Shown: positions 11,339 to 40,668 of the stretch, in pieces | Layout of the letters: each line of letters opens with the position of its first letter | Numbering within the stretch: the stretch's first letter is position 1 | Assembly: GCA_963674785.1 (NCBI GenBank) | Contig: OY771555.1 | Location: 144,851-208,850 of the forward strand | Direction: 5' to 3' | Length of the DNA stretch: 64,000 nt | Origin: Caldisericia bacterium | Lineage (GTDB): Bacteria > Caldisericota > Caldisericia > JAAYUI01 | Made by a program: the position numbers and the translations under genes | The notes under the pieces: generated by a model | The model's database searches: none | The model's input: the letters and a program-made list of their open reading frames with translations, nothing else | What the model was told of the DNA's origin: nothing

Positions 11339-12850
11339 ATGAAAAATAAAACGATAACAGCCATAGCAATAACAGTATCAGTTATTATTGTTGCAGGAAT
11401 TGGAGCATTTGCACTTATGAGCATCTGGAAGAATTCCTCAATAGATCCACTTGCATTTATACCAGAAGATTGCGGATTCTACGCCGTCTTTGATTCAGGT
11501 TTAAACATGGAGGATGTAAAAAGACCTATCGAATCACTTGGAGACACATACAAAAACGAATTTGAAGACTATTTTGACGAATTCATGGAGACTGACCTTT
11601 CATTTCTAAACCTCAACGGTTTTGTTGTGAAGAACTCCGACAGCATTTTATCACAGGATTTTGTTATTGGTCTTGAAATCACAGATAAAGCTGGTGCAAG
11701 AAAAGGGCTAGAAAATATCTACAATATCTTTGATTTTGAAGATAAACCCGAAATTATTGAAGATGAAAAAGGATTCATAAAAATCGGGGATGATTTTGTG
11801 TGTTTTGTTGAAAAGAACTTCCTGCTAATATCTCAAAGCTCAAGAGCAATAAATGATGTCCTTGATGTAAAATCAGGGGAAGATAAATCCATAATGGAAA
11901 ATGCCGATTGGAAGAAAATCAGCCACGAATTGTCCACTAAATTTTCAATTTTTGTACAAGTCCCCCTGGGTAAAGAACCTCTTGTTGTCGCTGCAACAGA
12001 ACTTTCAGAAAAGACTTCGGAGCATGGATTAGAGATAATACTTATCGAAGGGCGTCAAAGATTGAAGTCATCAATTCCAGATAAAGAAACAAGAGAAATA
12101 ATCGCACTTTTTGATGAAGTTTTCGAAAATAGCCGAGATTTGTCAGGCATTCTGTCGATGCTTCCCGATGCACCAATTGTTGGCGCTGCTTCTATGATTC
12201 CAAATTTCAACCTAGACATTTCAGACTCCAATGATAAGAATGTTTTCTTGGATGGTGATTATGGTTTCTGGGTCGACCCTGATGAATTCAATTCCCCAGC
12301 TATTTTTTGTCAGCTTATGAAGCCAACGGGTGTTTCAACAAGTAAACTTCTTGAATACATTTTCCCAGAGGATGAATTCAAGATTGAAGATAATCTGGGT
12401 GTAAAAGAAATTTATTCTTCCTTCTTTTTTCCAATGTCCCCATTTAATGATGAAGAACTAGAAGAGATTTCATTTGAAACCGAACCATCTTTTTTTGCAT
12501 CAGAAAAGAACGGAACAGCAATTATCTCAACAGAAATTGATGCCCTGGATTTTCAGCCATCCAAAAAGAACATAAAAACTGAGGATGCGGTGGCTTACTG
12601 CATAATCGATTTCAAAACCATGATTCAAAACAGTCTTGATTCAATAAAGGATTCCGAATATCAACCCGCATACGGATTAGATGAATACAAGGAAAGACTA
12701 AAGAAAATCGATCTTAAAGCAGTGATCAGACTCTATGAAAAGGACACAGATATGAGACTTAAACTCTCGTTCTCTGGTGATTTAAAAGAAATAAAATCAA
12801 TATTGATGGATGCTGCTGGCGAGATAACAAAAGAATCAAGTGAACAATAG
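11339..12850 (+). CDS. Membrane-anchored hypothetical protein (tandem paralog 1)
   Basis: 503 aa; N-terminal TM helix then acidic domain. Shares blocks with the next gene (ADWKKISHELSTKFSIF, EHGLEIILIEGRQ, NSRDLSGILSMLPDAPIVGAASMIPNF). Confidence 0.7.
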   Translation: MKNKTITAIAITVSVIIVAGIGAFALMSIWKNSSIDPLAFIPEDCGFYAVFDSGLNMEDVKRPIESLGDTYKNEFEDYFDEFMETDLSFLNLNGFVVKNSDSILSQDFVIGLEITDKAGARKGLENIYNIFDFEDKPEIIEDEKGFIKIGDDFVCFVEKNFLLISQSSRAINDVLDVKSGEDKSIMENADWKKISHELSTKFSIFVQVPLGKEPLVVAATELSEKTSEHGLEIILIEGRQRLKSSIPDKETREIIALFDEVFENSRDLSGILSMLPDAPIVGAASMIPNFNLDISDSNDKNVFLDGDYGFWVDPDEFNSPAIFCQLMKPTGVSTSKLLEYIFPEDEFKIEDNLGVKEIYSSFFFPMSPFNDEELEEISFETEPSFFASEKNGTAIISTEIDALDFQPSKKNIKTEDAVAYCIIDFKTMIQNSLDSIKDSEYQPAYGLDEYKERLKKIDLKAVIRLYEKDTDMRLKLSFSGDLKEIKSILMDAAGEITKESSEQ

Positions 12851-12935
12851 CCTATCCAAAGCATATTAAAAACGATAACTAAATCCTTGTGTCAAAATAA
12901 GAAAGCAGATACTATTTTCGGTGTTTGGAGGAAAC

Positions 12936-14402
12936 ATGAAAAATAAAATTACTGTTGTTTTAATAACCGTTCTTTTGGTTATTTTTATTGGTGGGGCAGT
13001 CTCACTTGGGCTTGTGGCTGATGCAAACGAGAATTCTCCTGGTCAGACAGATTACGCCAGTGAAAATGCTATGTTGTTTGTGCAGTTTGACTTAGAGTAC
13101 AACGCTCAAGATTTGATTGACGAAGTAAAACTTGTAATTCCGATGTTTGAAGATTTGATTGATGAAGAATTTGTTGGATTACTTGATTTTGATTACTCAT
13201 TCATAGACCTAGCGGGTTTTTATGTATTCGAGTCATACAGCGAAATTGACTACTCAATAAACAGCACCTTTGGGTTAAGGCTTTCAGGGGAAGGTGATCC
13301 TGAAAAAGGAATCGAATCAATTCTTGGCTATCTTGAAGAAACTTTTGAATTAGGAATTGAACATACAGACGAAGGCTACATAATCATTGATAACATCTAC
13401 ACAATGTATTTGGCTGAAGACTACATTCTTTTTGCTGAAGATACTCAATCAATTGAGTTTGCTCTTGACATAAAAGAGAACGACAAGCCAACCATCGCTG
13501 ATAGTCCCAATTGGAAAAAAGTTGAAAACGATTTATCTAAAAACTTCTCTTTCCTCATTAACTACCCATCCTTTATGGGCGAAAGCAGCATTCCAATTGC
13601 TGGAACATATATAAATCCAAGCAAAAATGAATATGGAATCGAACTTATTCTGGTTGATGGAAGAGAACAATTCGAAAACATGTTTTCTTTTGATGCTACG
13701 GGAGAGATTGCATCAAGTCTCAACTCTCTTTTTGATCAATCCAGAGACCTGTCAGATACAATATCATATCTTCCTGACACTGGACTTCGTGGGGCAATTG
13801 CTGGAATCCCAAATTTCGATGAATATTTCACTACTGTCGAGTTTCTTGAGGGCAGCAATGGGTATTGGTTAGACCTAGAAGATGAGTATCTTGGTAAAGA
13901 AGGTTTGATGTATGAGGCAACTGACATTGAACCAAAAGAGCTTCTTCTGAAGCTCTATCCTGAGAAAACTTACCACTATGAAGAAACCGAAGATGGGTTT
14001 GAGCTATACAGACTTCCATTCTTTTTTGATCCGTCAGAGGATGAATTTGACATAACCGACAAAACTCCAGATTTGTTTTGTCAAATCGATGAAAGCAAGA
14101 TATACGTCGTCTCAGACGAATCAATGAAACAAGAAACCTGGGAAAAATCAGAATTCAAGGATACTGGTGATTCTGTAGCATTCTTTGAGCTTGACTATGG
14201 AGAATTGCTCGAATCGATGGCTTCATCTGATGATGAAATGGGTTTTGGAATTGATCCATCTCTTTTAGCGGGACTTGTCAAGGAAGCTGACATAAAAGTA
14301 AACGTCAGATTATTTGAATTAAAACCAAATATAAAGCTTGATGTAATTATGAGTGGCGACTTCGAACTGCTTTCTGAGCTTGTTGAGAGTCTATTGCCTT
14401 GA
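12936..14402 (+). CDS. Membrane-anchored hypothetical protein (tandem paralog 2)
   Basis: Paralog of 11339..12850 (SPNWKKVENDLSKNFSFL, EYGIELILVDGREQ, QSRDLSDTISYLPDTGLRGAIAGIPNF). Start moved to ATG at 12936, preceded by GGAGG. Confidence 0.7.
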   Translation: MKNKITVVLITVLLVIFIGGAVSLGLVADANENSPGQTDYASENAMLFVQFDLEYNAQDLIDEVKLVIPMFEDLIDEEFVGLLDFDYSFIDLAGFYVFESYSEIDYSINSTFGLRLSGEGDPEKGIESILGYLEETFELGIEHTDEGYIIIDNIYTMYLAEDYILFAEDTQSIEFALDIKENDKPTIADSPNWKKVENDLSKNFSFLINYPSFMGESSIPIAGTYINPSKNEYGIELILVDGREQFENMFSFDATGEIASSLNSLFDQSRDLSDTISYLPDTGLRGAIAGIPNFDEYFTTVEFLEGSNGYWLDLEDEYLGKEGLMYEATDIEPKELLLKLYPEKTYHYEETEDGFELYRLPFFFDPSEDEFDITDKTPDLFCQIDESKIYVVSDESMKQETWEKSEFKDTGDSVAFFELDYGELLESMASSDDEMGFGIDPSLLAGLVKEADIKVNVRLFELKPNIKLDVIMSGDFELLSELVESLLP

Positions 14403-14440
14403 TATTTTAATATATTTCATCTATACTTAGGCAAGCGCAG

Positions 14441-16684
14441 ATGAGAAGTCAAAGAGCGAGAATAGCATTCGTATTGTTTTTGGCAATCTCGCTTGCCTTT
14501 GCGCCCTACTCTGCTTCCGCAAGATCAATCTCTTGGAATATGTTTGGTTTCAATGCAAGCCATACATTTGCAACAGATGAGCAGATTTCCACAGACTTAT
14601 CAGTCGACTGGATGTATGATACTGGAGGAGGAGTTGTTGCAACTGCAACCCCGTGTTACGAATCTGGGAGATTTTACGTCCCTCAAGCATCGGGCATGAT
14701 CAGTTGTTACAATGAGGAAACGGGAAAGAGATTGTGGAGATCAAAGCTTTCTTCTGCCCCAATCGTTTCGAAACCAAAACCCGTTGGTGGATACCTAGTA
14801 ACCACTTCTTATGATGGAAAACTCTACTCACTTTTTGCAAAAGATGGCAGCACCTACCGAAGCCGTGATATTGGATCACACACCTCAACCTCTCCTGTTG
14901 TGAGTAATGGGTATATCTTCACTGTCACAGATGAAGGTGAACTTGCCAAATGGACAATAAATGGTGTTTTCAAGGTTCAACAAAAAAATATAGAATCGCA
15001 AGTAAAATTAGATACTGACCCTGTCGTAACGAGAAAAGGGATAGCTATTGCAACAAACGATGACAAGATAAAATGTTTCGACATAAGATGGGGTAAAAAT
15101 CTTGAACTTAAATGGGAACGCTCAATTGCCATTCCATCTGGATCGAACTCCATGACCGAGACTGCCGATGGAATTTTGACAGTTGATTCTGATGGGATAC
15201 TTCATTATCTAAACTGGGACAATGGTAAAGATATCTGGGCTCTTCCTCTTGGTGAAGAGGTTCTATCAGGGATCATAACTGACTCTGGGAATGCTTATCT
15301 TGCAACAATGAGTGGTAATGTTCACTCAATATCAATTTCAGGTGGACGTTCTGATTGGATGAGAAGCCTCAAAGAAGAGGTTGTAAGCTCAAATCTTTCC
15401 ATCTCTGGTGGCAAGCTTTATGTCGGCAGCAAAAGACCTGCGAGACATTTGCACTGTTTAACATTGACGAGTAGCTCACTTTGGAACGAATGGTTCGAAA
15501 TGCCGTTTGGATGTAATATCTCTGCGGGGCAAAACGGCGTGCTTGTTATCCCAACAAGTGGTCAGGGTCAATATTTATCTCTATCGACATCAGATACCAT
15601 CTGGAAGTGTGATGTTGGAGGGCTTTCAGAAAGTGCACCAGTAGTCGACGGCAACCAAGTATTTTTCACTCTAACGGATGGTTCAGTTAGATCGATCAAC
15701 TCAGACAATGGAAGACTTATTTGGAGAAAAGATTTTGAAACACAAATAAATTCATCTCCTGCAATTGGAAACGGCAAGATAGTGCTTGCCCCAAGCAACA
15801 AACCTGTTGTGTGTCTGGACTCAAAAAATGGCAGGGAATTATGGCAAACAAATCTTTACAAGTATGTTGGCTCTGCACCAACCATCTATGGTAACACTGT
15901 ATTTGTTGGGGCATGGGATGGACTTGTGTACTCGTATGACCTTCAAACAGGCAACCCTGAAAGACAATACAAAACCTACGGACAGATAACTTCCTCCCCG
16001 ACGATCACAAGAGACGGTGTATTTGTTGGATCACACGACAGATTCTTCTACAAATTTCACAGAATTAACGGGAACAATGAGTGGCTTTATCCAACAGGAA
16101 AAGTTAAGAGAACCTGTGCTGAATCAAACAGGAACGGTTTTGTAATCTCTGAGAACACTATAACCTCACTTGACATGAAAAAGAGTCACGTCAGCTTGAA
16201 TTGGAGCCGCAAATTTGACTCTTTGGTCATCGCTGAACCCGCCTATAGCCAGACTCACCTTTTTGTAATGACTGCTGATGGCTATGTTACATGTATTGAC
16301 CAGAACGAGGATAATGGGGAAACCTATGTGTGGAAAAAGAAGCTTTCTCTGGATGGTTCTTACAAGAGCATTATTTTATGCCGAGACAGATTATGCATTT
16401 TGACCGGAAAATCCATTTATATTTTGTCCGCCGAGACAGGTAAGGAATTGTGGAATTATAAGCGAGGAATCAATATTACAGGGATGGTTCTCTCAAATGG
16501 CAAACTCATAATCTCAACACAGTCTGGTTCAATTGTCTGCATGAGTCCAACTCAAAATGTAAACGTACAAAAACCAGACAAGCTTCCATCCGCAGAGTAC
16601 ACACTCGACCCAAAATCCAAAGAGGATGTAATTAATGAAGCAATTCAAAACAAAACAACACCTGACCAAATCATGGTTTGGTAG
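14441..16684 (+). CDS. Secreted PQQ-type beta-propeller repeat protein
   Basis: 747 aa; signal peptide MRSQRARIAFVLFLAISLAFAPYSASA; repeated propeller-blade motifs (ETGKRLW, KNGRELW, AETGKELW). Confidence 0.75.
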   Translation: MRSQRARIAFVLFLAISLAFAPYSASARSISWNMFGFNASHTFATDEQISTDLSVDWMYDTGGGVVATATPCYESGRFYVPQASGMISCYNEETGKRLWRSKLSSAPIVSKPKPVGGYLVTTSYDGKLYSLFAKDGSTYRSRDIGSHTSTSPVVSNGYIFTVTDEGELAKWTINGVFKVQQKNIESQVKLDTDPVVTRKGIAIATNDDKIKCFDIRWGKNLELKWERSIAIPSGSNSMTETADGILTVDSDGILHYLNWDNGKDIWALPLGEEVLSGIITDSGNAYLATMSGNVHSISISGGRSDWMRSLKEEVVSSNLSISGGKLYVGSKRPARHLHCLTLTSSSLWNEWFEMPFGCNISAGQNGVLVIPTSGQGQYLSLSTSDTIWKCDVGGLSESAPVVDGNQVFFTLTDGSVRSINSDNGRLIWRKDFETQINSSPAIGNGKIVLAPSNKPVVCLDSKNGRELWQTNLYKYVGSAPTIYGNTVFVGAWDGLVYSYDLQTGNPERQYKTYGQITSSPTITRDGVFVGSHDRFFYKFHRINGNNEWLYPTGKVKRTCAESNRNGFVISENTITSLDMKKSHVSLNWSRKFDSLVIAEPAYSQTHLFVMTADGYVTCIDQNEDNGETYVWKKKLSLDGSYKSIILCRDRLCILTGKSIYILSAETGKELWNYKRGINITGMVLSNGKLIISTQSGSIVCMSPTQNVNVQKPDKLPSAEYTLDPKSKEDVINEAIQNKTTPDQIMVW

Positions 16685-18080
16685 TCTTTTACTCGTAATT
16701 TTTTTTAGCACAAATGTTTTTGCCGGAGGGGAACTTATCCGAATTGGGCAAGCATGGTGTCAATGTGCTTTTCAGCCAACTGAAGTTTGTCTGATGGATA
16801 ATTGGGTTTTGTATGTAGACAAGGAACTTCATCAAATATACACATTCACACACAGCGGGACTTTTAATGGCAATCTTTCTCGCGATGGAAACTGTGTAGG
16901 TCCTGAGGATTTCACACCATTTAGACTTGCATATATCGACAATCTTGTTTTTGCAACCTGTCACCACGATAACGCAGTAAAAGCACTCAGAAATGGTAAA
17001 GTAACCGAGAAAATCACAACTGCAGAGCTCGGTTTCCCAAATGCCAAACCAACCGCAATAAATGCTGGTGATTACTTCATATATGTTGCACTTGATAATG
17101 ATAAACTCGTTGCCATGTATTATGATTTTGAGGTTGAAACAATTATCGATACTAATTGTGTTGCAATGGATTTTTTGGATGAAAACCTGATCGTCATAAC
17201 TGAAAATGGGTTTTTAAAAACATACGATGTTGATTTGAATTTCATTTCTGAGAAAGACCTTTCGGGTCATTACGCTGGTCAGATTCAAAATCCAACAGAT
17301 ATGGTTATGGATGATGAGGGTTTGATATGGATTACCCATGATGGTGGATTAACAGTTCTAAACAATGATGGCACTTTTGGGGTATGGGGTAACAAATATT
17401 CTGATATGGAAATCGAACGAACAATAATCAGTGGTGATCCGATTGTTGGGTCAAAAGGGATATTCCCAGCAAATGCTGTAGACACAAGTGGTGGCTACTT
17501 TTATCTCACCCAAAATGGAAAATACGGTTTAACAGTCTCAAAAGACCTTATAAATCAGGTTCCAAGCTCCCAGGTTCATTTTATGGCAATTGCACTAACA
17601 GAAGATGAATACTGGAAACAAGCGATAAATATTTGGAAACTTCAACAGTATCTTTATCCACAAGTCTTAGTTGCAGTATTCCAAGATAGCGGACTTGAAA
17701 AAATTGGAATAAACGGAAATGGCGTATACCTAAATGGTGAATATATAACCGATGATTTCTCAGAAATCGAAAATGTTGAGATTTTCGGAGATGAAATTCT
17801 TGAATGTTCTGCTGAAACATCAAACATCAATATCAACGTAACTGAAGGAAAGCTTGTGGCTGATGTGAGCAAATCTGATGAACCTTTTGAAACCTCTCTT
17901 GCTCTCCTTGAGATACATGGTGAAAAGACACCGCTCATCGTTGATGATATAAGTCTAATCCATGCAAACAGATTTCAAAAAATTGAATGTGATATAAACA
18001 TTCCAGAGTACCCATCTGTTTTGTTTGCTGTGATACTAAACAAGCAAGGAAAGTCACTTGGAGCAAGGATTATCAGATAA
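16635..18080 (+). CDS. Secreted hypothetical protein (possible beta-propeller)
   Basis: 481 aa with signal-peptide-like N-terminus; overlaps the upstream gene by 50 nt. Its last ~18 codons are duplicated at 18475-18539. Confidence 0.6.
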   Translation: MKQFKTKQHLTKSWFGSLLLVIFFSTNVFAGGELIRIGQAWCQCAFQPTEVCLMDNWVLYVDKELHQIYTFTHSGTFNGNLSRDGNCVGPEDFTPFRLAYIDNLVFATCHHDNAVKALRNGKVTEKITTAELGFPNAKPTAINAGDYFIYVALDNDKLVAMYYDFEVETIIDTNCVAMDFLDENLIVITENGFLKTYDVDLNFISEKDLSGHYAGQIQNPTDMVMDDEGLIWITHDGGLTVLNNDGTFGVWGNKYSDMEIERTIISGDPIVGSKGIFPANAVDTSGGYFYLTQNGKYGLTVSKDLINQVPSSQVHFMAIALTEDEYWKQAINIWKLQQYLYPQVLVAVFQDSGLEKIGINGNGVYLNGEYITDDFSEIENVEIFGDEILECSAETSNININVTEGKLVADVSKSDEPFETSLALLEIHGEKTPLIVDDISLIHANRFQKIECDINIPEYPSVLFAVILNKQGKSLGARIIR

Positions 18081-18087
18081 ATTAATT
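18023..18087 (+). repeat. Direct repeat copy A (~65 bp; 3' end of CDS 16635..18080)
   Basis: gtttgctgtgatactaaacaagcaaggaaagtcacttggagcaaggattatcagataaattaatt, about 90% identical to copy B at 18475-18539. Confidence 0.8.
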
Positions 18088-18152
18088 AAGGATCTCGCAA
18101 ACTTTAGAGTGGCATCTTCCTAAAAGTCTTAAGGAGAGTATGGTAGGCACTC

Positions 18153-18464
18153 TTACTTGCCACTCTCATATTCCATCTCCATTGAGACTCTTTCAAGTAC
18201 CCGACCTTTGGTGATTGGTATGAGTTCATTTCTTGAACAGTTCTTCACAATCTTTGTGAATACTTTATCTCCTCTCTTTATGATACCGAAGACAGGTATC
18301 TTTGAGTCTGCTCTCCTACCCCTCTTTCCTCTTATTCTCTTTCCTCCAAAATAGCTTTCATCAAGTTCTACTTCACCTTCTACTGGTGATTCATCTGCTA
18401 GTGTAAGAATCCTTCTTCTGAATTTGTTGAACAACTTCCCTACTGTTACACGAGAAATGTTTGA
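18153..18464 (-). pseudogene. IS1595-family (ISXO2-like) transposase fragment
   Basis: Contains ...VELDESYFGGKRIRGKRGRRADSKIPVFGIIKRGDKVFTKIVKNC..., the region around the first catalytic Asp of the IS1595 DDE domain; lacks the Zn-ribbon N-terminus and the rest of the DDE domain. The first 18 codons of the track ORF are antisense to repeat copy B. Confidence 0.65.
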
Positions 18465-18474
18465 AAAATCTGCA

Positions 18475-18539
18475 GTTTGCTGTGATTCAAAACAAGCAAG
18501 GAAAGTCACATAGAACAAGGATTATCAGATAAATTAATT
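18475..18539 (+). repeat. Direct repeat copy B (~65 bp)
   Basis: gtttgctgtgattcaaaacaagcaaggaaagtcacatagaacaaggattatcagataaattaatt; would encode ...FAVIQNKQGKSHRTRIIR*, a degenerate copy of the C-terminus of 16635..18080. Confidence 0.8.
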
Positions 18540-18869
18540 TATTTTAATTAAAGTTTATATTCTTCATTTCTTGGCTCAAATGTTGTTACTATTGACATTT
18601 TTAATTAAATAATAGTAAATTTTACACCTTCATACTTATTTAGATTGTGCTAGAATCCTCTTACATATTGATAACAAACGTTGTCTAGGAGAGATTACAA
18701 TAACAGATTAGGAATAATATTAACAACTAAAACATGGAACATGATTCATCGATCAGTTTGTTAAATATGTTTAACGTTTTGTATCGCAAAACGAAGCTTG
18801 TTGAGAAAGCACATGGTAGAAGTATCTTCCTCAACAAGGCAAAGAACTTGAAAGGAATGATTACAAAAG

Positions 18870-19289
18870 ATGGTAACAGTAGAATTCCAAGGGGAATACG
18901 ATAAGGAAAAGAATCTGTCGATATTCAAATATGTCGATATACCACAATCAAAAGAAGACGTAGAGTTTGTCGTTGAAAAAGCCACACCACTTTGGAAAGG
19001 CGACGGTATTCATAAAAGCTGGAACATCACAGACATAACAGCACTCGGACAAGCCTCACCAAGTCTTGTCATTTACTACAACAAGCTCTGTAAACCAATC
19101 TTGAAAAAACACGTACACAATTATGTCGTGGTAGCAGGAACATTGCTTGAAAAAGTTGCAACAAGTCTGTTTAACACATTTATGGGTGAAAAACACCCTG
19201 TTGCATCATCAATGGAAGAAGCGCTTGAAATAATTGAAAGACTCCAAAAAAGAGACGGAGTTTTTCCATCAAAAGCAGAAAATCTGTAG
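18870..19289 (+). CDS. Hypothetical protein (tandem paralog A)
   Basis: 139 aa; about 60% identical to the next ORF (WKGDGIHKSWNITDITALGQASPSLVIYYNKL...LEKVATSLFNTFM). Family not recognised. Confidence 0.65.
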   Translation: MVTVEFQGEYDKEKNLSIFKYVDIPQSKEDVEFVVEKATPLWKGDGIHKSWNITDITALGQASPSLVIYYNKLCKPILKKHVHNYVVVAGTLLEKVATSLFNTFMGEKHPVASSMEEALEIIERLQKRDGVFPSKAENL

Positions 19290-19304
19290 AAAGGATGACA
19301 GTCT

Positions 19305-19721
19305 ATGAGAGTTGTTGAATTTGAAGGAAACTATGACAACGAAAAGAACATTTCATTTGTGAAATTCATAAATACACCTAAATCAAAGGAAGACATAGAG
19401 TATTTTGTAGACAATACTCTTCCACTTTGGAGAGGTGACGGGATTCACAAATGCTGGAATATAACTGATTTAACTGGTCTTGGGAAGGCATCCCCAGGTC
19501 TTGTGATCTACTACAACAAGTTGGTAAAGCCACACATCAAAAAGCATCTTGAGAACTATGTTGTTATTGCCGGATCAACACTTGAGAAAGTTGCAACAAG
19601 TTTGTTTAACACCTTCATGAGGGAAAGGCATCCCATTGTCTCAAGTATTGATGAGGCAATGGTGATAATCAAAAAATGGCAAGAGGAAAAGGGTATTTTC
19701 TTCTCAAAGATTGGCGAATAG
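19305..19721 (+). CDS. Hypothetical protein (tandem paralog B)
   Basis: 138 aa paralog of 18870..19289. Confidence 0.65.
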   Translation: MRVVEFEGNYDNEKNISFVKFINTPKSKEDIEYFVDNTLPLWRGDGIHKCWNITDLTGLGKASPGLVIYYNKLVKPHIKKHLENYVVIAGSTLEKVATSLFNTFMRERHPIVSSIDEAMVIIKKWQEEKGIFFSKIGE

Positions 19722-20173: not shown

Positions 20174-20419
20174 CTAATTTCGATCTTTCCAGGCCGGAAG
20201 TTTAGCAAGATTCTTGATCGCCATCTCTCTTGCAGCGGCTTCGTCAAAGCCTTGTGACTGAACTAAAAAACCAGTCATACCAGCAACACATTCTTCATAA
20301 CTTTTCATTGAGCCATCTTCTCTTGCACAGTAGAGGCAATAGTCCTTTGACTCATCTCCAAGAGCAAAATCCTCCTTCTTCTCCATCGGCATTCCGCAAC
20401 AAATACAAATTTTACTCAT
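20174..20419 (-). CDS. Zinc-ribbon domain protein
   Basis: 81 aa; CICCGMPM...CLYCA Cys pairs. Its TAG stop directly abuts the ATG of the ATL-like gene. Confidence 0.6.
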   Translation of the reverse strand: MSKICICCGMPMEKKEDFALGDESKDYCLYCAREDGSMKSYEECVAGMTGFLVQSQGFDEAAAREMAIKNLAKLPAWKDRN

Positions 20420-21017
20420 CTTTCCAGTTCCTTTCTGAAATCAGATTCATATAGTTATCAACAAGTTCATATCCTCTTTTTTTAAGTAATGACCCTTCTA
20501 CACAATAAAATCTTTTATTCTGAAGATAGTGATGAATAAGCCCAATCCAGGTTGTAAAAAGAAAGCTCATGGGCATTCTTTTTATTAAACCTTTTTCCAT
20601 TTCGGTTTTTGCGGCACTATACATTGAGTGAGAAATCGCGGAATGAATAGAAACAACACTTACCTGTACATCCTCGGGCAAGGTGTTTAGTTCAGAAATC
20701 AACCTTGCATAAAGGTCTTCATACTCAGATAAAGTTGCAAGATGTGTTTTTAGTACAGTTCTTATACCCATATCCGCATCAATATCCGCCCTCATTTTCC
20801 TTGTGACACGCATACCAAAATCATGCATTACGGTAACAAGTAATTCATCGCGAGTTGGAAAATGCAAAAAAACCGTTCCGTGCGAAACGCCTGCAGTATT
20901 TGCAATATCGATCGTTCTAGCTCCACTTATCCCATCAAGCTCAAAGTGTTTCATTGCGGAATCAATAAGCTTCCTATGAGTATCTTCACGTTTTTCTTTT
21001 CTAGATTTTGCGATCAT
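20412..21017 (-). CDS. TetR/AcrR family transcriptional regulator
   Basis: HTH ARTIDIANTAGVSHGTVFLHFPTRDEL. The ORF-track N-terminus (WARQDSNLRPLPCEGNALPTEPP) is antisense translation of tRNA-Val, so start moved to MIAKSRKEK (ATG 21015-21017). Confidence 0.8.
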   Translation of the reverse strand: MIAKSRKEKREDTHRKLIDSAMKHFELDGISGARTIDIANTAGVSHGTVFLHFPTRDELLVTVMHDFGMRVTRKMRADIDADMGIRTVLKTHLATLSEYEDLYARLISELNTLPEDVQVSVVSIHSAISHSMYSAAKTEMEKGLIKRMPMSFLFTTWIGLIHHYLQNKRFYCVEGSLLKKRGYELVDNYMNLISERNWKDE

Positions 21018-21133
21018 ATCTTTTAAACTGAGTTCAGACTCACTGAGTTTTGACTCATAATATGCCGAAACATCAACATTGTCAAGTTCAACTGTTGACT
21101 TGTGAATACGTAACAATAATATATTAAACATGT

Positions 21134-21209
21134 GGGCGGGTGGCTCAGTTGGTAGAGCATTTCCTTCACACGGAAGAGGTCGCAGGTTCGAGTCCTGTCT
21201 CGCCCACCA
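21134..21209 (+). tRNA. tRNA-Val (anticodon CAC), CCA encoded
   Basis: GGGCGGGTGGCTCAGTTGGTAGAGCATTTCCTTCACACGGAAGAGGTCGCAGGTTCGAGTCCTGTCTCGCCCACCA folds as cloverleaf: 7-bp acceptor, D arm GCTC/GAGC, anticodon loop TTCACAC, T loop TTCGAGT. Confidence 0.9.
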
Positions 21210-21243
21210 ATAAGTGCTCAAAAGAGATTAAAGGGGTGCAGTT

Positions 21244-37577: not shown

Positions 37578-38411
37578 TCATTTTTTTAGATAAACAAAAT
37601 AGTAGATACCGCCAATAAATATAGCCCCACCTACGATATTTCCAAGTGTGACAGGTACGAGGTTATTAACAAGAAAAGTTGACCATGTAAGACTACTTGC
37701 TCCACCACCCAGCCCACTTGCAGCTAAAACCCCAGCATTTCCTTTCAGAAACAATCCCAAAGGTATGAAATACATGTTTGCAACACTGTGCTCAAAACCA
37801 CTCGCAACAAACGCCATTATTGGGAAGTATATCCCAGCAATTTTACTAACTAAATCTTTTCCTGAGATAGCCAACCACACAGCGAGAACAACAAGTATGT
37901 TGCAGGCAACACCTCGTAAAAATGCCTCCAGAAAACCTAGGTTTACCTTTGTGACAGCAATATTCAGAGCATATGTCCCTACCCCATAATCACCCATTTT
38001 GTAAAGACCACCAAAGTAGACAAGGATAACCAAAAAAATAGAACCCACAAAGTTAGCCGAGAAAACGATTGACCAGTTTCTAAATAAACCAGAAAGAGCT
38101 ATTTTACGCTTAAAAAGAGAAATACTCATCAATGAATTACCAGTAAAAAGTTCTGCTCCACCAAGCACAACAAGAACAAGTCCAACACTAAAAACACTAC
38201 CTCCGATAAACTTGCTCAATCCGAGTCCAAAATACCTAGAAACATCATGGGTGACAACAGTATAAAGATGTGATCCAAATCCAATGTATAACCCAGCTAA
38301 AATTCCCGACAAAAAAAGTTTGGAAAAAGAAAGTTTTGATTTATCTTTGCCAATATCAACAAGCTTTTGTGCTACTTCACATGGAGTTAAATAGTTTATA
38401 TTAATACACAC
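37578..38411 (-). CDS. Formate/nitrite transporter (FNT) family channel
   Basis: 277 aa; FNT pattern (LFLSGILAGLYIGFG..., GAELFTGN..., FVASGFEHSVANMYF). Substrate not assignable. Confidence 0.85.
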   Translation of the reverse strand: MCININYLTPCEVAQKLVDIGKDKSKLSFSKLFLSGILAGLYIGFGSHLYTVVTHDVSRYFGLGLSKFIGGSVFSVGLVLVVLGGAELFTGNSLMSISLFKRKIALSGLFRNWSIVFSANFVGSIFLVILVYFGGLYKMGDYGVGTYALNIAVTKVNLGFLEAFLRGVACNILVVLAVWLAISGKDLVSKIAGIYFPIMAFVASGFEHSVANMYFIPLGLFLKGNAGVLAASGLGGGASSLTWSTFLVNNLVPVTLGNIVGGAIFIGGIYYFVYLKK

Positions 38412-38746: not shown

Positions 38747-40280
<1,534 letters not shown>

Positions 40281-40668
40281 CATCTTATATATGTATTATA
40301 TATAAAGTGTTATATTAAATAACTAGGTGCTCTCACACCTATATTGTCATTCTGGAATTGCACCGGATATTGACTTTCATGTGTTAATTGCTATCTAGTT
40401 TTCAAACTACTACATTTCCCAGAAGTGAATCGAGGAAAGTTCAGTTTACCACAAAAGGTGACCACCGTCAAGCAGTTACCCTTTCGGCCAACGAGTAATG
40501 AAATATAACCCAAAAAGTTATAGAGTCAAGGAATGGATATAACATGAATAATATATTGCATTCATGGGACTTTCTTGAGAATCAAATTCAATAATCGAAA
40601 GGTTCCTTTAACCATCATTCGAAAGATTTTCACCAAAACGCTTCACATTCAACGATTAAATCGAATCC

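Follow-up and report, generated by a model that had tools for sequence, protein, structure and literature searches.

Genomic context

The window (the whole 64-kb stretch of DNA that was analysed) is a piece of bacterial chromosome, with a 16S rRNA gene at 38747-40282 and a tRNA-Val gene at 21134-21209. Its lineage is poorly sampled: a conserved pyrophosphatase has no non-self match above 83%, and its named matches lie at 55-57%. A plus-strand cluster of genes for secreted and beta-propeller proteins occupies 11339-18080, upstream of an insertion sequence (IS) remnant, and two tandem paralogues of unknown function lie downstream of it at 18870-19721. The features of the interval between these two groups are listed here by window position.

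16635-18080, plus strand: intact CDS of 481 aa, an ORF for a secreted conserved hypothetical protein, the final 58 nt of which form part of repeat copy A
18023-18089, plus strand: repeat copy A, made up of the last 58 nt of this CDS and the 9 nt past its stop codon; judged native from the family comparison below
18090-18107, minus strand: right terminal inverted repeat, intact (the plus strand reads GGATCTCGCAAACTTTAG) and the sole surviving IS terminus
18104-18198, minus strand: transposase 3' segment, comprising the last 30 codons (LKESQWRWNMRVASKSAYHTLLKTFRKMPL, stop codon at 18104-18106), out of frame with the upstream segment
18153-18518, minus strand: chimeric ORF of 121 aa, called as a 118-aa protein in public annotation
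18189-18198, no strand assigned: internal deletion junction with 206 nt lost, where two blastn segments overlap by 10 nt
18199-18486, minus strand: transposase 5'-proximal segment, approximately codons 29-127, with a helix-turn-helix and the first Asp motif ELDESYFG
18475-18486, no strand assigned: 12-nt junction identity (GTTTGCTGTGAT on the plus strand, ATCACAGCAAAC on the minus strand), lying within both the IS homology and copy B
18475-18541, plus strand: repeat copy B, judged a decayed duplicate of the gene tail, followed by native downstream spacer

The 481-aa CDS is the last gene of a conserved beta-propeller/PQQ-repeat cluster. Its product has no Pfam or NCBIfam match, and three database homologues (P0091-P0093, 40-51% identity) align with it up to the C-terminal end. 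The upstream cluster is partly syntenic in another locus, L001, where the neighbour on the upstream side is again a 746-aa PQQ-repeat protein; downstream there is no synteny with L001, which has a different gene there and gave no help in reconstructing the spacer. Neither an empty site nor a sister strain was found, the best homologue of the 481-aa protein being only 51% identical. Among the ORFs near the remnant there are no integrase or phage genes, and a promoter and terminator scan of 17800-19000 gave nothing above shuffled expectation and no minus-strand promoter-like site.

A direct repeat copying the gene tail

A repeat search of the window returns a direct repeat of 65 nt in two copies, 18023-18087 and 18475-18539, which lie 452 nt apart and are identical at 60 of 65 positions (92%), in agreement with the approximately 90% given for this pair in a preliminary description of the locus. 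Two more columns can be added (18023-18089 versus 18475-18541, 61 of 67 identical), and the sequence flanking the repeat is unrelated on both outer sides. When copy A was used as a blastn query, only copy B was matched (E = 7.6e-23) and no third copy was found in the 64-kb window. A 20-mer common to both copies gave three chance matches in a metagenome collection.

The stop codon of the CDS, at 18078-18080, lies inside copy A. The C-termini of the homologues read ...YAIILDxNxKCIGARIIRN (pattern ...A.IL.....GARIIR), and G476, A477, R478, I479 and R481 (window numbering) are invariant across the family. Copy A encodes FAVILNKQGKSLGARIIR followed by the stop codon, while copy B, in the same frame, encodes FAVIQNKQGKSHRTRIIR followed by a stop codon (...SHRTRIIR at its end). 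The copies show six differences over 67 nt; four of the five in the coding part alter residues (L to Q, L to H, G to R, A to T), and two of these changes fall on positions that are invariant in the family. Because the C-terminal GARIIR is conserved in P0091-P0093 and copy B breaks invariant residues, copy A is, on this comparison, the gene's native 3' end and copy B an unconstrained duplicate, as had already been proposed.

Identity of the transposase remnant

The minus-strand ORF at 18153-18518 contains the peptide VELDESYFGGKRIRGKRGRRADSKIPVFGIIKRGDKVFTKIVKNC, from which the preliminary description had recognized the region around the first DDE Asp of an IS1595-type transposase. Profile searches bear this out. 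The ORF matches Pfam PF12762 (DDE_Tnp_IS1595) with E = 2.2e-10 and 41.2 bits (cut-off 27), over profile positions 2-74 of 153 only, and NCBIfam NF033547 (IS1595 family transposase) with E = 2e-15 and 57 bits. The full-length cut-off of NF033547 is 75 bits, and the window protein scores lower because it is truncated; a composite of close relatives reaches 163.5 bits over profile positions 1-215 of 215. The transposase fragment has 90 protein homologues, the closest of which are 78-85% identical. The two profile matches and these homologues make the remnant a member of the IS1595 family by descent, although a non-functional one; within this family it belongs to the IS1016 subgroup.

Read from its start, the ORF consists of the reverse complement of copy B, transposase residues approximately 29-127 and a frameshifted tail, RVSMEMEYESGK. 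Of the 90 homologues, P0001 alone sits on the 2,233,174-bp source contig, and P0001 is this very 118-aa product, identical in sequence, which suggests that the source genome has no further annotated copy with the transposase core region. A blastn search of the window found no second IS copy there either. The ORF of 118-121 aa is best read as a pseudogene.

Anatomy of the remnant

Two metagenomic copies, L002:4948-5687 and L003:297-1036, both 740 bp in length with terminal inverted repeats, served as IS references. Alignment and blastn map IS nt 138-435 to window positions 18486-18189 and IS nt 632-740 to 18198-18090, and the alignment with the IS covers the whole interval of 385 nt between the repeats. 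The first of these segments (69-78% identity, E down to 1.5e-64) codes for DESYFG at 18345-18362. The second (76-77% identity, E about 1e-17 to 1e-18) includes the transposase C-terminus, which is carried by a second minus-strand ORF at 18104-18229; in a BLASTP comparison, LKESQWRWNMRVASKSAYHTLLKTFRKMPL up to its stop codon is 71% identical to the C-terminus of P0004 (E = 1e-16). The statement that the first Asp region stands here without the rest of the enzyme must accordingly be amended, since 18090-18198 still contains the right inverted repeat and, in another frame, the last 30 codons.

The right inverted repeat aligns to the right ends of the relatives (...CTAAAGTTAGCGAGAGCC in L003 and ...CTAAAATTAACGAGACCC in L002), the left ends of which read GGGTCTCGCTAA(C/G)TTAAC. 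Inverted-repeat termini had been thought worth seeking near 18088-18152: one does exist, starting at 18090, but only one. IS nt 1-137, comprising the left inverted repeat, the promoter/5' UTR and the first 28 codons, gave no blastn match in the 64-kb window.

The two surviving segments meet at a short repeat. The 9-mer direct repeat CTTGAAGGA is present twice, 206 nt apart, in intact relatives (L003 and L002 both carry GCTTGAAGG(A/G)AG... and ACTTGAAGGAGTC...) and in one copy in the window, as part of CTTGAAAGA. Since 206 is not a multiple of 3, the reading frame changes between the segments. The IYTD and NGIESFW motifs, with the second Asp and the Glu, fall in the 206-nt deletion, leaving the DDE triad incomplete. 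As it has one end only and its catalytic core is gone, the remnant cannot transpose; most likely, it does nothing now.

Relatives of the element

The full-size relatives of the window element are similar to members of the IS1016 subgroup (IS1016 of Haemophilus/Neisseria and ISApl4 of Actinobacillus pleuropneumoniae) with respect to size (approximately 740 bp, compared with 712 bp for ISApl4), to the single transposase of approximately 215-223 aa and to the short terminal inverted repeats starting with GGG. The published motif spacing of the subgroup is E-DESYFG(53)VYTD----Y(24)HINGIENFW...K(14)L-IKE---RFN (PMC12561309). Motif order is the same in the relatives (E-DESYFG ... (I/V)YTD----Y ... 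H(I/V)NGIE(S/N)FW ... L-(I/L)KE---R(W/F)N), and a regular-expression count gives spacings of 54/25/15 in the L002 composite and in P0004, each one more than the 53/24/14 printed for ISApl4. The window copy keeps the first and last of the IS1016-type motifs. It differs from the subgroup in being a one-ended relic without the second and third catalytic residues and without the first 28 codons.

The lineage of the window copy stands far from the named elements. At the amino-acid level, the L002 composite is 43-44% identical to Psychrobacter/Moraxella copies, and the window fragment is 56% identical to a fragment from Neisseria dentiae. In a search of genome contigs with the composite transposase (80 loci, in a collection that does not include the source genome), the best genomic relatives were Chthoniobacterales metagenome-assembled genomes (MAGs), at 57-77%. 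We know of no ISfinder name for this lineage.

Four metagenomic loci represent the same IS lineage as the window element, with 78-85% amino-acid identity, 69-78% nucleotide identity and the same inverted repeats: L002 (Logan SRR10131171), L003 (SRR28229726), L084 (GCA_054921975.1) and L085 (ENA ERZ23491060). Unlike the window copy, they keep both ends or run off the contig. All four are nonetheless damaged, with frameshifts in L002 and L003 and in-frame stop codons in L084; L084 and L085 also share an extra insert of approximately 27 nt after the DGWK motif. No long flanking duplication is visible around any of the four.

Target duplications could be read from more distant relatives that have both ends. 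They are AT-rich and 7-8 bp in length (TTAAATTT at L012, TAAATAAT at L014, GTCGATTA at L016 and TTGTAAA at L005). In the closest relatives no duplication could be read, L002 showing none and L003, L084 and L085 being either decayed or truncated where their contigs stop. Published target duplications of IS1016-group elements are 7-9 bp, mostly 8 bp, and likewise AT-rich (PMC12561309). With both sets of values this short, the 67-bp repeat is not a target-site duplication, and the earlier judgement that 65 bp is too long for a normal one stands.

Junctions between the remnant and the repeats

The right IS terminus (18090) follows directly after TTAATTAA (18082-18089), 9 nt past the stop codon, and TTAATTAA is a candidate target site, AT-rich like the sites preferred by IS1016-group elements (PMC12561309). 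Copy B ends with TTAATTTA (18534-18541), which matches TTAATTAA at 7 of 8 bases; these are the last 8 nt of both 67-nt repeats and are inseparable from the larger duplication. We infer from this arrangement the pre-insertion sequence and an 8-bp target duplication at the window locus.

At the other border, DNA homology to the IS stops after ATCACAGCAAAC, running into copy B. The same 12 nt open copy A at 18023-18034, where they encode part of a conserved FAVI. L085 reads ACATCACAGCAAACA, a 13-nt exact match to window positions 18022-18034 in the gene tail, while L003 (ATCACAGGAAAC) and L002 (ATCACAAGAAAC) differ by one base at the position of the junction identity. That the parental IS carried exactly ATCACAGCAAAC is thus a prediction from the window itself and L085, the nearest DNA relatives of this parent being only 70-78% identical. 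A 12-nt overlap at a random breakpoint has a probability of about 4^-12; some shared 12-nt word between the shuffled IS and the 1 kb upstream is found in 4.3% of trials. The existence of a 12-nt identity is therefore unremarkable, and it is the position of this one, at the junction, that is informative.

An intact IS terminus adjoins the end of copy A, and IS-internal sequence adjoins the start of copy B. This places the insertion point after copy A and makes copy B the added piece. The 12 nt at the IS/copy B junction belong to the gene as well as to the IS, and the specific cause indicated by this is short-homology recombination; the preliminary description had stopped at an old insertion followed by deletion or recombination, which is supported.

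With its substitutions at 18487 and 18489, copy B has the sequence TCAAAACA, which is also found in the IS 12 nt further in (L084 and L085). This match is treated here as a coincidence, although it may come from a more complex template switch. Copy B was also considered as the N-terminus of the transposase: its reverse complement gives FLACFESQQTADF, compared with ILKCFEHDFTSQQTADF in the relatives. This was ruled out, as copy A is native to the gene family and the IS homology ends at the 12 nt.

Proposed history of the locus

The arrangement is probably the outcome of the insertion of an IS1016-group element of approximately 740 bp and of two later short-homology events that disabled it. The IS, with its transposase gene on the minus strand, would have taken the AT-rich TTAATTAA as its target, 9 nt past the end of the 481-aa CDS and its stop codon. 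In the first of the two events, the left 137 nt of the IS would have been lost and replaced by the last 58 nt of the gene and the 9 nt following it, the exchange point being ATCACAGCAAAC, a chance identity between the transposase gene (IS nt 138-149) and the gene tail. If m is the 12-nt identity, a' the rest of the tail, T the 8-bp target and IRR and IRL the right and left inverted repeats, the filled site would have read X-[m a' T]-IRR...IS...m...IS(left)-IRL-[T]-Y. The observed order is X-[m a' T]-IRR...IS...[m a' T]-Y, such that 'IS(left)-IRL' would have been swapped for a' between m and T, with the upstream tail as template.

The most economical route to this product would be a single templated gap repair of a break that arose at the left IS end or close to it. 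Resection on the IS side would have gone back to the 12-nt identity; the end so formed would have annealed to the upstream tail (on a sister chromosome or on the same molecule), been extended through the tail and then been rejoined to the far side via the 8-bp target duplication; no IS-free partner would be needed. Two other routes could lead there as well. In one, the locus would have undergone an illegitimate crossover, at the 12 nt, with an allele that lacked the IS; in the other, slippage at the 12 nt would have given a tandem duplication, from which the complete IS copy was then precisely excised. The product is the same for all three, and they are indistinguishable.

In the second event, 206 nt between the two CTTGAAGGA repeats would have been deleted by slippage, with loss of the second Asp and the Glu and a change of frame. 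Copy B, free of constraint, would then have drifted. What we infer from the final sequence is in which order the events took place, that there was a break and by which pathway it was repaired; under this model, an empty site would read ...CAGATAAATTAATT(A/T)A and then TTTTAATTAAAG....

These two events resemble short-homology (RecA-independent) deletion and duplication and microhomology-primed gap repair (SDSA/MMBIR-type), in that both window junctions lie in short identities, of 12 nt and 9-10 nt, and that one event would have filled a gap with a copy of nearby sequence and the other deleted what lay between direct repeats. They differ from those systems in that only the product is seen here, with the break, the donor molecule and the proteins deduced from it.

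Alternative explanations

A complete IS may instead once have been situated inside a duplication of at least 67 bp, from which a later slippage deletion, running from one 12-nt copy to the other, removed the left end. Such a duplication could have come from an abnormally wide staggered cut or from recombination of two independent insertions separated by a few dozen bp. Very long and variable duplications are made by a few ISs, IS1549 (IS4 family) among them, the final product would be identical, and the 12-nt identity is an equally good deletion endpoint. This history nevertheless takes two or three events at least where one suffices, the duplications are of 7-8 bp in the relatives and of 7-9 bp in published IS1016-group elements, and there is neither a second IS in the window nor another source-contig protein among the homologues. 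We regard it as possible but doubtful.

Much less probable is that the ORF of 118-121 aa is a domesticated truncated transposase, that is, a helix-turn-helix DNA-binding protein under selection. Its 106 transposase-derived codons are stop-free, the helix-turn-helix region SQQTADFSNISRVTVGKLFNKF is kept, and public annotation calls it as a protein. Against these points, its own promoter region (IS nt 1-137) is gone and the scan found no minus-strand promoter-like site and no enrichment over shuffles; it starts with the decayed gene tail in reverse complement and has a frameshifted C-terminus. No orthologue in the database has this truncated architecture, and the close relatives of the ORF are either pieces of ordinary ISs or sequences on short contigs.

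Elements with tyrosine integrases typically come with direct repeats of 40-70 bp in which a gene's 3' end is duplicated, and the 65-bp repeats could on that model be the attL and attR of an integrative element (a prophage or island) targeting the gene, with the IS fragment as leftover cargo. This reading is rejected, as everything between the repeats (only 385 nt) is IS sequence and both borders are defined by the IS: copy A stops exactly where an intact terminus begins, and 12 nt of copy B are at the same time IS-internal sequence. The model would require two independent deletions, one halting precisely at each att border, and there is no integrase or phage gene nearby; we consider this explanation slightly less probable still than domestication.

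A chance match or an assembly artefact is the least credible explanation of the repeat, given its E value in the window (7.6e-23), the 5-6 positions at which the copies differ (which is not what a collapsed or duplicated read would give) and the identical ORF on the 2,233,174-bp contig in both NCBI and ENA.

Significance

The feature is an ordinary dead IS, a case of genome decay, and opens no new biological question. The scar could also be a clean natural record of a break made by the transposase at the left IS end and repaired in one step, with the 8-bp duplication and the chance 12 nt as annealing sites, or the truncated ORF could be a domesticated regulator; we think it improbable that either is so. 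To our knowledge, the transposition chemistry of the IS1016 group is uncharacterised; were one-step break repair true, IS1016-group elements would excise by double-strand cleavage.

For annotation, the 118-aa 'protein' is an IS pseudogene fragment that should not be counted as a gene, and the 481-aa gene upstream of it is intact. The transposase is not necessarily the source of a long 'target duplication' that surrounds an IS fragment, and the locus is a textbook case of how identities of 9-13 nt drive the deletions and local duplications that erode ISs. With it, an unnamed IS1016-group lineage gains a decayed member from a bacterial lineage that is poorly sampled.

Gene content of the window

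The 481-aa gene (CDS 16635-18080) and the PQQ-repeat gene upstream of it (747 aa) share 50 nt (16635-16684), the start of the former lying within the 3' end of the latter. Because an overlap of identical length is called at the 51%-identical homologous locus on contig L001 (L001:6001-6050), this arrangement seems to be conserved and not a start-codon miscall. Two paralogous genes lie in tandem:

18870-19289, plus strand, paralogous gene of 139 aa
19305-19721, plus strand, paralogous gene of 138 aa

Their products are clearly alike (for example, ...PLW(K/R)GDGIHK(S/C)WNITD...), the 5' portions of the genes share 68% identity over 122 nt (blastn), and neither of the two proteins has a Pfam match.

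A mechanically called open reading frame (ORF) crosses a tRNA gene of the opposite strand:

20412-21221, minus strand, TetR-family regulator ORF of 269 aa
21134-21209, plus strand, tRNA-Val(CAC) gene

The first approximately 60 codons of this ORF (MSTYWWARQDSNLRPLP...) are the antisense of tRNA-Val(CAC) and are not real; the true start of the regulator must be further inside the ORF.

One rRNA gene is present:

38747-40282, minus strand, complete bacterial 16S rRNA gene (1493 bits)

No 23S or 5S rRNA gene is found in the entire 64-kb window, and an ORF of protein length (37578-38411) sits downstream of the 16S rRNA gene on the same strand; the rRNA genes of this genome thus appear to be unlinked.

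The IS1595-family remnant and its metagenomic relatives

Copy B of the direct repeat, the decayed duplicate of the 3' end of the 481-aa gene, differs from the native copy A at 18487 and 18489 (18035 and 18037 in copy A), changing ACTAAACA to TCAAAACA. The latter is the exact sequence found 12 nt deeper in the transposase gene of the metagenomic relatives L084 and L085 (coding-strand form: TGTTTTGAA). This match is probably a coincidence, but the two substitutions could instead reflect template switching of a more complex kind at the junction.

These two independent relatives also have in common an additional insert of approximately 27 nt (L084:5445-5475 and L085:795-830; ...GTAGAAGCCTGCCATCATGAAAATGGGGG...), located directly after the DGWK motif within the region of the second catalytic Asp (YTDGWK). 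The insert is not present in the relatives L002 or L003, and the corresponding region is deleted from the window copy.

All close relatives that could be read are damaged by frameshifts or stop codons:

L002:5001-5673, damaged relative
L003:349-1022, damaged relative
L084:5046-5745, damaged relative

In the metagenomes sampled, this insertion sequence lineage may have mostly died out.
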